Below, piece after piece: positions 4,656 through 8,069 of a DNA stretch of 45,861 nt. A model generated the notes under the pieces. The model was given only the letters and a program-made list of their open reading frames with translations, searched no databases and had not been told where the DNA came from. A program made the translations under genes and the position numbers. Each line of letters begins with the position of its first letter. Positions within the stretch are counted from its first letter, which is position 1. This DNA is from Rickettsiales bacterium (lineage in GTDB: Bacteria > Pseudomonadota > Alphaproteobacteria > Rickettsiales > UBA1997), in contig CANDYP010000002.1 in NCBI GenBank assembly GCA_947425005.1, positions 1 through 45,861 on the forward strand. The letters are read 5' to 3'.

Positions 4656-4700
4656 TGCTTTCACGCCTTGCTTGGACAAAAATACTTGCGACGAGATGGG

Positions 4701-4718
4701 CCCCGTCATTCGACGGGG
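4701..4718. terminator. Hairpin between convergent genes (possible bidirectional terminator)
   Basis: ccccgtc-attc-gacgggg lies between the amidase stop (4655) and the pilin-like gene stop (4740). There is no clear U-tract. The adjoining ggggtgacgga also occurs inside family E (832-842). Confidence 0.3.
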
Positions 4719-4739: not shown

Positions 4740-7313
4740 TTAATAAGGATTAAGAATTGAGCCGAAATTCTGTTGATTATTTGAGCATGAGGCGCCCCAA
4801 GAGCCATTGTAACCATTGCCAGCATTAACATCATCTCTGCAATAAAGCTTTGCGTAATAACGACCGTCCACACATTTGAAGGTAAAGTTCGCGCTAGAGT
4901 CATCGTGGTGAGCTTGATACTGACAACGTCTTTCTTCTATAAGATGTTGCGATCCAGCTGGAGTGAGAAGATGTTGAGCTGTTGGAGCGCTACCGCCAGA
5001 ATTCTGGCAGTTAGAGCCCGTTAAACCATAGCAGTCAAAATCATTTATTCCTGCACTAGTCCTATATTTGCCAAAACAATAATTTGCTCCGCTTGGCGTC
5101 GAAGTGGATGTTGCGACAATGGTACTTTTTGCGCCGGTAAGGCTAGTACAACCTTTGCAAGAGGTGCAGGCATTTGAAATTACCCACGTACCATTAGAGC
5201 AAGTGACATATGGGGCGGCGGATATTCTGTCGGTAGTTGTAAATTTATTTGTGCCGTCAATTTCAACGTTACAGATGTCGACTTCGCCAGAGGTGTAGGT
5301 TCTACTAAAATCACTTGCAGCGCCTATGTAAGAGTGTCCAAAGCCAGAGTTACATCTTAAGTTGATGGTGGCTCCGTCGACAGAAGCCCCTGCAGAGTAG
5401 CTTGGATCGTAGGCATTCGCGGTGGTGTAGTATTGGCTTTTGGTGCAAGAGAGTGCAGCGCAGGTTGATGCATCATCAGTGTCAAGATCGGTAAGAAAGC
5501 TTAGTTGATAAGCTGGAGAGACGGACGTTTGGTGAGCGTTAACACTGGAAGTTGCATCACAAGCACTACCCCAAGAGTTATCGTGTCCATTGCCTAGATC
5601 TGCTTCATCGCTACAAGCCATTTTTATATTAAAACGACCATCAACACATTTAGACCAAATTACAGAGCTAGAATTGTCGTTATGACCTTGATACTGACAG
5701 TTATCAAGTGCACTTCCATGCGATAATGATGTCATTGAAAGGGCATGTTCTGAGAAGCTGTAGCTGGTACAGTCACTGGCTATGCCATTAATGTAGTAAC
5801 AGTCGTAATTTCCTGACCAGCCACTGGAGTTTTCATTTCGGAATTTACCCTTGCAGATGTTGGTAGATGAACCGTTGTTATCGTCACTATAATCGTAGAC
5901 TACATATGTTTCTGCGCCACTTACCGAAGAAGAGCAATCCCGGCAAGGGCTGCATGGATTATCTATTAAACCAGCAGTGCCACTTACATGGTTTTTCCAA
6001 GTTCCGTTGTCGCAATATACTGATGGGGCGGTGGCGATTCTATCGGTTGTGTTAAAGGGTTGAACTCCATCTACTCGAGGGTGACATAAGTCCACTTGGC
6101 CATCAGCTGTGGAAGGGTTGGTAAAGCTTCTTGAACTTCCGATCGCATGCCCAGATCCGGGATTGCATCTTAAGTTCGAAATAGTGGTGCCGCTGGCTAA
6201 ATATTCGCTGCGAGCAGCGTAACCGGAATCATGGGCATGTCCATCAGATCCACCATAAGAACAACTTTTTTGACAATAGCCGACGAAGCAAGTGGATGAT
6301 CCAGGAGTGTTGTCATAAGTACATTCAGTAGGGGTTTCCCAGATGCCTTTCAAACTACATTTTCTGGTGGGGTGACTTACAGAATCTCTCCAATATAAAG
6401 GGCAGGCTGTGGGGGAGATTACTGTTTGATCGTGATATGATTTTGGCCAAACTACTTCCGTGCCATCAGTCGTGTGACCAAGTTCGCCACAATATTTATT
6501 CTGAGTTTGTGCAGCACAAGGAACCAAGGTCCAAGCTCCAAAATCATCAAACATTTGGTTTCTGGTTTTGTAAAAAACTACGTCATCAAAATCAGAAGCG
6601 GCAGCAGAGCCAAGGAAGGTGCTGTCAAATGTAGAAGTTGCCGGCGAGACACCATCATTCACTGAAGATAAATCGTTACTCGATTCGTTGCTAACTGAAG
6701 TTGAAGGGCTTGCAGAGTTGGCGGAGTAAGCTCCAGACTGATTAGCTCCACGACTCATCAAAACAAACATCGCGTTAGTTTCAGATGTGCCGCTAATCGT
6801 GATATGTTGGTAAGTAACAGTTCCTCCATCGGCAGCTTCAATGATGCTATTTTCAAAACTATCTGAAGAGGTTGTGGCCAGTCTTCTGTCGACGACGTAA
6901 ACAATTTTATTGCCGTAAGCATCTTCAGCAACGCTACTACTTAACCCCAAAGCCTGAATTGGCACCATTCCGTAGATCAAGTTAGAAGTGGTTGATTTGT
7001 AAATACCAGCATCGCTGCAATCAGTAGCATTGGACGGTGATCCGTAGGCTGTTGAGGTGTTTTTAATATCCGTGATTGGAGCTGGACAAGGAAGGCTGCC
7101 AGTATTCTGCAAATATCTTCCCAAGGCCTGGTAAATTATGGCAATATTGTCGCTGCTGCTTTTAGATTTAGAGTTGATGGTCTTACTAGTTGTTACCGAC
7201 AGAACCCCTACAATGACAACCGACAGTACGGCAATGATGATGGAAAGCTCAATCAAGCTGAAAGCTTTGCTGAATTTTTTACGATTAAATTTTTTTGTAA
7301 AAAGCTGTCTCAT
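4740..7313 (-). CDS. Giant prepilin-leader (type IV pilin/pseudopilin-like) protein with duplicated Cys-rich ectodomain
   Basis: 857 aa. The N-terminus is a basic leader, then KA|FSLIE with Glu at +5, then a ~20-residue hydrophobic helix, which is the class-III (prepilin) signal. The pilin-like head includes EDAYGNKIVYVVD. A Ser/Thr-rich linker follows, then ~600 aa with 38 Cys, including two homologous 14-Cys modules. Confidence 0.8.
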   Translation of the reverse strand: MRQLFTKKFNRKKFSKAFSLIELSIIIAVLSVVIVGVLSVTTSKTINSKSKSSSDNIAIIYQALGRYLQNTGSLPCPAPITDIKNTSTAYGSPSNATDCSDAGIYKSTTSNLIYGMVPIQALGLSSSVAEDAYGNKIVYVVDRRLATTSSDSFENSIIEAADGGTVTYQHITISGTSETNAMFVLMSRGANQSGAYSANSASPSTSVSNESSNDLSSVNDGVSPATSTFDSTFLGSAAASDFDDVVFYKTRNQMFDDFGAWTLVPCAAQTQNKYCGELGHTTDGTEVVWPKSYHDQTVISPTACPLYWRDSVSHPTRKCSLKGIWETPTECTYDNTPGSSTCFVGYCQKSCSYGGSDGHAHDSGYAARSEYLASGTTISNLRCNPGSGHAIGSSRSFTNPSTADGQVDLCHPRVDGVQPFNTTDRIATAPSVYCDNGTWKNHVSGTAGLIDNPCSPCRDCSSSVSGAETYVVYDYSDDNNGSSTNICKGKFRNENSSGWSGNYDCYYINGIASDCTSYSFSEHALSMTSLSHGSALDNCQYQGHNDNSSSVIWSKCVDGRFNIKMACSDEADLGNGHDNSWGSACDATSSVNAHQTSVSPAYQLSFLTDLDTDDASTCAALSCTKSQYYTTANAYDPSYSAGASVDGATINLRCNSGFGHSYIGAASDFSRTYTSGEVDICNVEIDGTNKFTTTDRISAAPYVTCSNGTWVISNACTSCKGCTSLTGAKSTIVATSTSTPSGANYCFGKYRTSAGINDFDCYGLTGSNCQNSGGSAPTAQHLLTPAGSQHLIEERRCQYQAHHDDSSANFTFKCVDGRYYAKLYCRDDVNAGNGYNGSWGASCSNNQQNFGSILNPY

Positions 7314-7346: not shown

Positions 7347-8069
7347 TCAGCGAAAAACTGTCTTAGCGATTGTCAGTGCCGTCACTTTTTTCGCCCCAGC
7401 TTTTTTCAAAACTTTGGCGCAATTTTCTAAAGTGGCTCCGGTTGTGATTACGTCGTCGATTAGGAGAATTCTTTTATTTTTTACGGTTTGAAAATATTTC
7501 GGATTTAAAGCGAATGCGCTCTTCAGATTTTTTTTGCGCTGCTTTTTTCGGAGCGTAACTTGAGCTGCGGTATTTTTGATACGCAACAAAAAATCAGGAT
7601 AAAACTTTGTTGTGGGTGTGTGTTGTAGCATTGCGCGGCACAAGAGCGAAGCTTGGTTAAATTTTCTCTGACGCAATCTTTTTTTATGAAGTGGTACTGC
7701 TACGATAAGATCAATATTTGTTAGTTCGGCACGACTTCTGTGAAATAAAAATTTTGCTAATTTTTTGGCGATGTAAGTGGTGTCGCGATATTTAAATTGG
7801 CTGATTATTTTTTTAATAATTTCGTTGTAGCGAAAGACCGTGATCGTTTTGTCGTAAGCTGGCGGGTCGCTTAAACAAGAGGCGCAGGTCAAATCATCGC
7901 TCACCTTAAAATCAAAAGGATGCGCGCAAATTTTGCATTTCGGCTCAGTAATGAATTGCAATTTTTGCCAGCAATCACTACAAAATAGACCTTCCGCACT
8001 AATTATTTTTTCGCAGTACAAGCAGTGACTTGGAAAAATAATTTCCAAGATTTTCTTAAAAAATTTCAT
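7347..8069 (-). CDS. comF: ComF-family protein (ComFC-like; zinc-ribbon plus phosphoribosyltransferase fold)
   Basis: 240 aa. The N-terminus has CxxC...CxxC...CxxC...CxxC, and the C-terminus has the PRTase motif ILLIDDVITTGATL. Confidence 0.82.
   Translation of the reverse strand: MKFFKKILEIIFPSHCLYCEKIISAEGLFCSDCWQKLQFITEPKCKICAHPFDFKVSDDLTCASCLSDPPAYDKTITVFRYNEIIKKIISQFKYRDTTYIAKKLAKFLFHRSRAELTNIDLIVAVPLHKKRLRQRKFNQASLLCRAMLQHTPTTKFYPDFLLRIKNTAAQVTLRKKQRKKNLKSAFALNPKYFQTVKNKRILLIDDVITTGATLENCAKVLKKAGAKKVTALTIAKTVFR

Follow-up and report, generated by a model that had tools for sequence, protein, structure and literature searches.

Type IV pilins are synthesized with a class III signal peptide, which comprises a short basic leader, a cleavage site, F or M at position +1, E at position +5 and about 20 hydrophobic residues; the canonical prepilin residue at position -1 is Gly. 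Modular pilins, in which additional modules are grafted onto the pilin, are a recognised route to new binding abilities of type IV pili and, to our knowledge, most of the modules grafted in this way are unnamed. In Streptococcus sanguinis, PilB corresponds to a pilin with a vWA module and PilC to a pilin with a lectin module (Raynaud et al., 2021; PMC8179133), while CofB of ETEC and TcpB of Vibrio cholerae combine a pilin with a beta-repeat and a beta-sandwich (PMC8179133). The same effector modules are found on pilins and, likewise as grafts, on PilY1, a tip adhesin that is not a pilin (PMC8179133).

The protein of 857 aa described here is encoded in a window of 45,861 nucleotides (the whole stretch of DNA that was analysed) from the 1.34-Mb genome of an uncultured Rickettsiales-like bacterium, obtained from a cave metagenome (Table 1), and a homologue of its gene occupies the equivalent location in a relative. 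The protein contains 38 Cys and its mature form has, from its composition, a mass of about 89 kDa and a pI of 4.9. Like the modular pilins, it presents an N-terminal pilin followed by linker-joined C-terminal effector modules, whose bulk leads to the expectation of a position at the tip of the filament and, as in the case of PilY1, its module is also present on a non-pilin carrier. Unlike in these systems, the graft is an undescribed, predicted disulfide-rich cassette of two sub-domains, A and B, present as a tandem pair; the pilin module, with about 245 aa, is of unusual size and has a small sushi/HRM-like domain of its own behind it; and the protein, known from its sequence and from models, belongs to a small-genome diderm. 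We consider it fairly probable that this protein is a modular type IV tip pilin with a binding head that underwent an ancient doubling.

Table 1. Features of the gene for the 857-aa protein and of its surroundings (nucleotide positions in the window).
Feature	Residues	Position (nt)	Strand	Basis or remark
Complete gene (modular type IV pilin-like protein, 857 aa)		4740..7313	-	intact ORF
Predicted prepilin leader and hydrophobic alpha-1 helix	1-17 (leader), 20-71 (helix)	7101..7313	-	N_methyl, AF2
Predicted globular pilin domain, order-wide carrier	72-262	6528..7100	-	AF2, Foldseek
Small Cys/Trp domain (C266, C275, C304, C319, C331)	263-333	6315..6527	-	conservation
Module copy 1, 16 Cys	341-590	5544..6293	-	alignments
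Sub-domain A1	about 342-454	5952-6290	-	
Sub-domain B1	about 454-585	5559-5954	-	
Cys-free linker between copies, 26 residues, D/S/T-rich	591-616	5466..5543	-	pLDDT <50
Module copy 2, 15 Cys	617-857	4743..5465	-	alignments
Sub-domain A2	618-716	5166-5462	-	
Sub-domain B2 and 14-residue tail	716-843 and tail	4743-5168	-	
comF-type phosphoribosyltransferase		7347..8069	-	Pfam DZR_2 and Pribosyltran; ends 33 nt upstream
Terminator-like hairpin and T-rich tail		4689..4708	-	consensus match; site count not above shuffle expectation

All the elements of a type IV pilin N-terminus (leader, F or M at +1, E at +5 and hydrophobic stretch) are present in the 857-aa protein, which starts with MRQLFTKKFNRKKFSKA followed, after a cleavage predicted behind A17, by FSLIELSIIIAVLSVVIVGVL, so that F18 takes position +1 and E22 position +5. 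L20, I21 and E22 are nearly invariant among 41 sequences of the carrier family. The Pfam profile N_methyl (PF07963) scored 17.3 bits (E = 0.003) on this protein, below its cut-off of 21.2 bits, and 26.2 bits, above the cut-off, on the homologue P0003; it was the only motif recovered when the whole protein was compared with Pfam, NCBIfam and PDB sequences. Pilins fold as a long N-terminal alpha-1 helix that packs on an antiparallel beta-sheet, and the AF2 model displays this type of fold, with a 52-residue alpha-1 helix preceding a beta domain (block-mean pLDDT 79-97 for residues 21-150, mostly 80-97 for residues 20-340), and the top Foldseek match of the pilin domain is the type IVb pilin 9iuf_A of ETEC (probability 0.99, 176 columns, TMt 0.46, E = 0.1). 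A cognate type IV pilus machinery is encoded in the same genome, i.e., a prepilin peptidase (PilD; Peptidase_A24), PilB-like and PilT-like ATPases (T2SSE, 412 bits; PilT-like match, 178 bits), the platform protein PilC (T2SSF) and a secretin.

The N-terminus could also belong to an unpolymerised, pseudopilin-anchored protein of the periplasm or cell surface, serving as an anchor, an export signal or a GspK-type pseudopilus cap. This would agree with the sub-threshold N_methyl score and with the Ala at position -1, with a weak GspG match of the 857-aa protein (E = 0.1) and the name 'type II secretion system protein' given by NCBI to one relative, as well as with the difficulty that such a very large extension would need passage through the secretin. 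However, Ala instead of Gly occupies position -1 in 12 of the 12 pilin-like N-termini found in the genome, indicating a habit of the lineage rather than a defect, and large modular tip pilins are documented (PilB, CofB and TcpB; PMC8179133). Moreover, the PilT-type ATPase is typical of retractile type IV pili and members of the carrier family occur in tandem arrays of 2-5 paralogues, like sets of minor pilins, making a pseudopilin anchor unlikely.

In the tip pilin that we favour, the pilin domain is followed by the small Cys/Trp domain. The earlier note had described a short segment from C304 to C331 as a third Cys/Trp-containing piece in front of the duplicated modules; this segment exists, but it is part of a domain with 4-5 Cys belonging to the carrier (about residues 263-333) and lies outside of the duplicated module. 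C304 is invariant and C331 is present in at least 90% of the 41 carrier-family sequences. The domain has the pattern C...W...C-P-x-x-W...R-K-C-x-x-x-G-x-W...C, and Foldseek with about residues 263-333 retrieved the ectodomains of class-B GPCRs, which contain the hormone-receptor domain HRM (PTH1R and CGRP receptor, 20-32% identity; E = 0.3, probability 0.77 and 24% identity). It differs from HRM in having 4-5 Cys instead of 6 and in that every score is sub-threshold (E = 0.3 for the fold, 0.003-0.014 for the profile); the Pfam profile HRM (PF02793), whose cut-off is 26.2 bits, scored 16-18 bits in the relatives P0007 (E = 0.0029) and P0012 (E = 0.014). Residues 1-340 are confidently modelled as a type IV pilin and a small domain, probably of a sushi/hormone-receptor-like kind.

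The carrier (about residues 5-260) was matched in 201 of the 301 genomes of the order. In further proteins with this carrier, the C-terminal position is occupied by different modules, e.g., Gly_rich_2 or RCC1 repeats, which makes it a swappable effector slot. A BLASTP search of the genome encoding the 857-aa protein with its 340 N-terminal residues detected no further copy of the carrier family; the order-wide genome search lists a second carrier match in this genome. The other 300-residue pilins of the genome belong to a different family.

The region downstream of the carrier contains a real and old internal duplication. The two-fold repetition of one module, as proposed in the earlier note, is well supported by BLASTP (E = 8e-45, with 38% identity and 57% positives in an alignment of 250 columns) and by a Smith-Waterman score of 413, compared with 48.7 +/- 8.8 for 500 shuffles (z = 41). 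The six sequence islands listed in that note were each found in copy 1 and in copy 2, the sequence between islands being strongly diverged. At the nucleotide level, the alignment is limited to the best-conserved islands (69% over 132 nt), which is expected for an old duplication; this merely residual nucleotide similarity rules out a recent DNA-level repeat or an assembly artefact.

The cysteine register of the two copies could be retained with one correction. From the 14 Cys pairs initially proposed, 13 were recovered by BLAST and MAFFT, while the first one (351/623) was off by four residues, and the realignment raises the number of pairs to 15. The motif C-x4-C-(Q/T)-(K/R), conserved in the family, sets the register to C342/C618 and C347/C623 as the true N-terminal pairs and leaves C351 unpaired, opposite Q627, so that the modules start about 9 residues earlier than first thought (nt 6290 and 5462). 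The correspondence between residues and nucleotides was accurate throughout (C351, 6261-6263; C585, 5559-5561; C623, 5445-5447; C843, 4785-4787). Cys accounts for 8 of the 13 columns that are invariant across 13 module sequences, in agreement with the view of a conserved cysteine scaffold. We infer that the module cysteines form disulfide bonds, although the odd number of Cys in copy 2 makes an all-paired scaffold within each copy impossible for both copies. For the formation of disulfides in the periplasm, the genome encodes DsbB and a pair of DsbA-like proteins.

The module, of about 240 residues, is composite, consisting of sub-domain A (about 95-113 aa) and sub-domain B (about 140 aa), as can be seen in the relative L012, in which sub-domain A alone is duplicated (A-A-B). 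Sub-domain A is probably Sushi/CCP-like. Sushi/CCP domains, also called SCR, have about 60 residues, with four Cys (bonded C1-C3 and C2-C4) and a Trp between C3 and C4; they are present in factor H, CD46, CD55, beta2-glycoprotein I and the complement-control proteins of poxviruses, and their fold is usually associated with animals and the viruses that infect them. The pattern of sub-domain A, C1 ... G-x-x-I-x-L-x-C2-x-x-G-Y/F-G ... C3-x-N-G-T-W ... C4, contains four Cys and a Trp in CCP order, to which are added a fifth invariant Cys and an insertion of 25-45 residues between C2 and C3; the first description of this piece as vaguely Sushi-like with a wrong spacing was thus fair. The Cys/Trp pattern and an all-beta model bring it close to Sushi/CCP, whereas its length of 95-113 instead of about 60 residues, the fifth Cys, the long C2-C3 insertion and its occurrence in a bacterium set it apart.

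The Pfam profile Sushi (PF00084) did not match either copy of the 857-aa protein at E <= 1. It matched 4 of the 13 modules of the family, all below the gathering threshold of 20.7 bits (best E = 1.2e-4), including P0012 with 19.1 bits (profile positions 1-53 of 56) and P0016 with 17.5 bits. Copy 2 was left unmodelled in the full-length AF2 model; modelled as a module, it is all-beta with medium confidence (pLDDT 66.5, pTM 0.62). Of the 50 best Foldseek matches of this module model, almost all are CCP proteins (the top 46 PDB matches all contain CCP domains), with a best E of 0.02 and TM values of 0.16-0.41. The PDB profile search with sub-domain A gave insignificant matches, in which Ig V-domains and CCPs were mixed (E >= 0.008). 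An origin of sub-domain A as an expanded version of the sushi/HRM-like domain of the carrier, or of the simple 4-Cys modules of paralogues, was not supported by hhalign (probabilities of 4% and 0.2%, respectively).

Sub-domain B, with the motifs C-x2-C-x2-C ... CQYQxH ... CVDGRF ... GNGxNxxWG, has no match to any named family. Pfam yielded just faint matches of single members to Ephrin_CRD and Furin-like_2, NCBIfam gave no relevant match and the PDB profile search gave none at E <= 10. All profile searches with the module thus remained below threshold, leaving it outside already named domain families. The Cys-rich tails of P0003, P0004 and P0002 were considered as degenerate second copies of B and rejected (hhalign probability <1%).

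Only 7 matches to the module were obtained among 1.84 billion representative proteins. It is present in 13 of the 15 genomes of one genus, presumably of host-associated, small-genome Rickettsiales-like bacteria, and absent elsewhere among the 301 genomes of the order. In the same genus, the module has a second carrier, a Cys-rich protein of roughly 2,000 residues that ends with it; the module therefore has two carriers and is not confined to pilins. In this giant protein, neither the PilY1 beta-propeller nor any other Pfam domain was found. In relatives, it is encoded at 1-2 kb from pilin genes of the carrier family, an arrangement reminiscent of large non-pilin adhesins that work with minor pilins, like the PilY1/PilC tip adhesins of type IVa pili, and we conjecture that it is associated with the pilus. 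In the genome encoding the 857-aa protein, TBLASTN for the giant protein retrieved only the modules of the pilin; the syntenic place (rpe-murD ... purE) is located at the end of contig C41. The purE gene is missing from this assembly.

The two-module layout is rare, being found in the 857-aa protein and in the metagenomic fragment P0010 among roughly 20 distinct module-bearing proteins; the sharing of this layout indicates that the duplication is older than the split between the two. In phylogenetic analysis, both copies group with the modules of two other, single-module pilins in one clade (support 99/98) with long branches, in which copy 2 is no closer to copy 1 than to the modules of these relatives. 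The capture of copy 2 from the terminal module of the giant protein was rejected, the modules of the latter falling outside of this pilin-type clade. The rarity of the layout, with a single copy sufficing in most relatives, and the strong divergence between islands could suggest that binding does not involve the second copy, which would either passively lengthen a stalk or be a neutral remnant in decay. We consider this very unlikely: neither copy has lost any of the 15 aligned Cys or any conserved island after long divergence, copy 2 shares 56-57% identity with its P0010 orthologue and the ORF is intact, which together point to purifying selection on both copies.

The comF-type gene upstream of the pilin gene, with which it possibly forms one transcription unit, raises the alternative that the protein acts as a minor pilin in a competence pilus for DNA uptake, with modules that would capture or handle DNA like ComP/ComZ. 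The two genes are on the same strand and their pairing is retained in relatives, a comF-type neighbour being also present in L001 and L004; in addition, a competence pilus would agree with the PilT-type retraction ATPase. However, comF is part of a housekeeping string with a methyltransferase gene and miaB, and the module-bearing L003 orthologue, although adjoining the same amidase and maeB genes, is preceded by four further pilin paralogues (two of them partial matches) and not by comF. The modules, with pI values of 4.9 and 6.2, are acidic to neutral, unlike basic DNA-receptor pilins, which argues against DNA binding, and the presence of the module at the end of a secreted protein of 2,000 residues fits adhesion better than DNA uptake. 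A competence role is thus highly improbable. On the other side of the gene, the terminator-like hairpin is located just past the stop codon, before a convergent amidase gene.

Returning to the modular tip pilin, we infer its display on the pilus, its position at the tip, its adhesive function and the existence of a ligand from the features described above. The leader and the alpha-1 helix would direct processing by the prepilin peptidase and insertion into the filament by the pilus machinery, the tip being the most likely position in view of the 65-kDa extension. The pilin domain and the small sushi/HRM-type domain would then be followed by two tandem disulfide-rich units, each composed of a stretched Sushi/CCP-like beta domain (A) and an unrelated, putatively beta-rich end domain with 10 Cys (B). 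This A+B unit may be a binding head, i.e., a genus-restricted ligand-recognition cassette, which would have been reused at the C-terminus of the secreted Cys-rich giant protein in related genomes, its tandem copy in the 857-aa protein probably originating from an old intragenic duplication within the pilin lineage. Having two units could mean two binding heads, or a greater reach, when the pilus attaches to the surface of a partner or host cell. A more specific proposal, which we regard as doubtful but conceivable, is that A+B is the receptor-binding head of an attachment apparatus specific to the genus, carried both by a pilus-tip pilin and by the giant protein of roughly 2,000 residues, which would be a fibre of Sushi beads encoded near pilin genes, and that pilus and fibre recognize the same surface ligand of a host, possibly a protist. 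If this were true, the doubled head would make the pilin tip bivalent or provide two tips whose specificities have diverged, and sub-domain B would be a new disulfide-rich ligand-binding fold.

The modular design of pilins is already known; the A+B module itself is undescribed and, with its sub-domain A, contributes a further bacterial example of a Sushi-like module. The duplication is an ordinary evolutionary event, whose value is that the diverged copies mark the constrained residues. The graft present here is a defined one, with clear boundaries of A and B, 15 conserved Cys, restriction to one genus and reuse on a giant secreted protein, which makes it a concrete candidate for a host-attachment determinant of this lineage.

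The earlier note on this DNA, made from the sequence alone, had proposed that the pilin-like protein carries one module repeated twice, and the alignment bears this out: copy 1 (residues 341-590) and copy 2 (617-857) align over 250 columns, of which 38% are identical and 57% positive (E 8e-45); their Smith-Waterman score is 413, where shuffled copies give 48.7 +/- 8.8 (z = 41). Similarity between the copies at the DNA level is merely residual (69% over 132 nt). The coordinates given for the duplicated cysteines proved exact, and the six conserved islands were each found in both copies. Thirteen of the 14 cysteine pairs proposed as equivalent were reproduced by BLAST and MAFFT, but the first (351/623) was four residues off. 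Copy 1 holds 16 cysteines and copy 2 holds 15, C351 being without a partner, and the pairs C342/C618 and C347/C623 fall in a motif, C-x4-C-(Q/T)-(K/R), that is shared by seven modules from the closest relatives. With the first pair shifted and these two aligned, there are therefore 15 aligned cysteine pairs. The duplication is confirmed with this one register correction, and its earlier interpretation, as an old duplication under selection for the disulfide scaffold, is supported.

An alignment of 13 modules revealed 13 invariant columns, eight of them cysteines, and two sub-domains: A (~95 aa; C...G-x-x-I-x-L-x-C-x-s-G-y-G...C...T-D-R...P...C-x-N-G-t-W...N-x-C) and B (~140 aa; C-x2-C-R-x-C ... 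C-Q-y-Q-x-H-x-x-d-S-S ... k-C-(V/L)-D-G-r-F ... G-N-G-x-N-x-y-W-G-x-x-C). At one locus in a relative (L012, ORF in frame +2, residues 410-703), the Sushi-like sub-domain A alone is duplicated, giving the layout A-A-B, which shows that A and B are separable units that have been shuffled independently. Both window modules are acidic to neutral in charge.

Searches of the whole protein against Pfam, NCBIfam and PDB sequences, which addressed whether the module is an already named domain family, detected the leader motif only and no named domain. A profile of the two copies matched seven proteins in total among 1.84 billion representative proteins; iterated local searches, seeded with matches from a 5.8-billion-sequence collection and from a scan of species genomes, extended the module-bearing set to ~16 proteins, every one on the same pilin-like carrier. 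An AF2 model of copy 2 (13-sequence alignment) is all-beta and of medium confidence (pLDDT 66.5, pTM 0.62). Foldseek comparison of this model with the PDB gave no match at E <= 1e-3 (best E 0.02); at this model pLDDT of 66.5, the top 50 matches are nearly all CCP/Sushi proteins (CD46, factor H, SPICE, factor XIII B, beta2-GPI, C1s). Pfam Sushi was matched below threshold by four of the 13 modules (best E 1.2e-4), that of the homologue P0012 reaching 19.1 bits (cut-off 20.7) over profile positions 1-53 of 56, and had no match in window copies 1 and 2, whose sub-domain A contains a 25-45-residue insertion and a fifth cysteine. Against PDB sequences, the sub-domain A profile gave insignificant matches and the sub-domain B profile none. 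Sub-domain A, a candidate member of the Sushi family at most, probably adopts a stretched Sushi-like fold; sub-domain B is assigned to no family or fold.

The N-terminus of the window protein, MRQLFTKKFNRKKFSKA followed by FSLIELSIIIAVLSVVIVGVL, is a prepilin-type leader (+1 = F, +5 = E); it matches Pfam N_methyl slightly under the cut-off (E 0.003), and the homologue P0003 exceeds it. A comF-type gene lies 33 nt upstream on the same strand, an Amidase_2 gene and maeB are convergent neighbours, and a terminator-like hairpin is found 3' of the stop codon. In an AF2 model of the full protein (41 family sequences), residues 20-340 mostly reach pLDDT 80-97 and comprise an alpha-1 helix of 52 residues followed by a beta domain. 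Foldseek ranks the ETEC type IVb pilin first for this carrier (probability 0.99), followed by class-B GPCR ectodomains, with which sub-threshold Pfam HRM matches in relatives agree; in our reading, the latter fit residues ~263-333, the Foldseek table being without query coordinates. The Cys/Trp segment C304-C331, noted earlier as a third segment preceding the modules, exists but belongs to this small carrier domain at residues ~263-333, which is kept throughout the carrier family, including ~320-aa members without further extension.

Of 301 genomes sampled from across the order, 201 contain the pilin domain. Carrier paralogues form tandem arrays of 2-5 in relatives; as a rule, one member of the array has the Cys module or a Gly_rich_2 domain grafted onto its C-terminus as a large extension. 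At the syntenic place, the window holds a single carrier copy. Other members of the carrier family bear different C-terminal grafts (Gly_rich_2, RCC1 repeats), the ORFs reaching 2,600 aa. In other genera of the family, the carrier is fused to RCC1-repeat regions (~1,000-1,100 aa) and to ORFs of ~2,500-2,650 aa; these are extreme modular pilins.

Coordinates of the module-bearing gene and of related features in the own genome and in relatives
Feature	Location	Strand	Remarks
Module-bearing gene	4740..7313	-	single intact ORF, 857 aa, 38 Cys
Pilin-like N-termini, own genome	window 7260-7313; contigs C11, C25 (2), C30 (2), C31, C64, C76, C78 (2)		
Carrier tandem arrays, relatives	L003 73-4625; L005; L007; L033 10043-13634		
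Long carrier fusions, other genera	P0042, P0043; G266:C8, G116:C10		
Giant protein ORF, relatives	L033 1917-7913 (G259:C25); also L034, L035, L036		
Contig end with murD, own genome	C41:1-730		murD runs off contig end

In the window's own genus, 13 of 15 genomes matched the module profile, as did none of nine from other genera of the family and none of the remaining genomes sampled in the order. MAGs of this genus bear the label Rickettsiales or Alphaproteobacteria and were obtained from lakes and groundwater; a cave metagenome is the source of the window. The search for other carriers, suggested in the earlier note, uncovered a second, non-pilin one: in 11 of the 13 module-positive genomes, a module lies at the C-terminus of a giant ORF of 1,870-2,565 aa. 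The four giant ORFs read are mutual homologues (35-38% identity), Cys-rich and devoid of Pfam domains, and three of these four loci have carrier-family pilin genes at a distance of 1-2 kb. Conserved across the genus, the giant ORF occupies a place between murD and purE; one A+B module forms its end, with several Sushi-like motifs (R-x-C-x-x-x-G-x-W-x-x-x-x-N-P-C) upstream. It was not found in the own assembly (1.34 Mb, 87.5% complete), where the syntenic place is a contig end, the exact spot of the giant protein gene in relatives, and purE is missing; at this break, a long, repeat-like, Cys-module gene may have left a gap in the assembly.

In the module phylogeny, both window copies group with the single modules of the homologues P0003 and P0004 and with copy 2 of P0010, a metagenomic fragment (support 99/98), to the exclusion of the giant-protein modules and every other pilin module. 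Within this clade, copy 2 of P0010 is the sister of window copy 2 (96/98), and P0010 also holds the end of a first copy. Together, these data indicate an intragenic duplication that took place in the pilin lineage, before the split from the P0010 organism and at about the time of the split from P0003 and P0004. The latter two proteins also have Cys-rich tails, which proved unrelated to the module.

Genes for PilB-like and PilT-like ATPases, PilC, a prepilin peptidase and a secretin are present in the own genome, as are genes for DsbB and two DsbA-like proteins. The genome has about ten more pilin genes (~300 aa), which do not belong to the family of the window's carrier. A search pattern admitting G, A or S at -1 recovered 12 pilin-like N-termini in this genome, all with Ala instead of Gly at this position (K/S/Q-A followed by FSL(I/V)E); at least ten of the 12 are from the ~300-residue pilins of the other family.

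In modular pilins, a pilin carries a grafted effector module and so displays it, probably at the pilus tip, and the same modules are also grafted on PilY1, a non-pilin tip adhesin (Raynaud et al., 2021; PMC8179133). The architecture of the window protein matches this concept; compared with the published modular pilins, the grafted A+B cassette itself and its tandem doubling are new. The window protein is a modular type IV pilin with an undescribed, genus-restricted, presumably disulfide-rich A+B head in two copies, and its role would most likely be adhesion at the pilus tip, a reading that we favour with moderate confidence.
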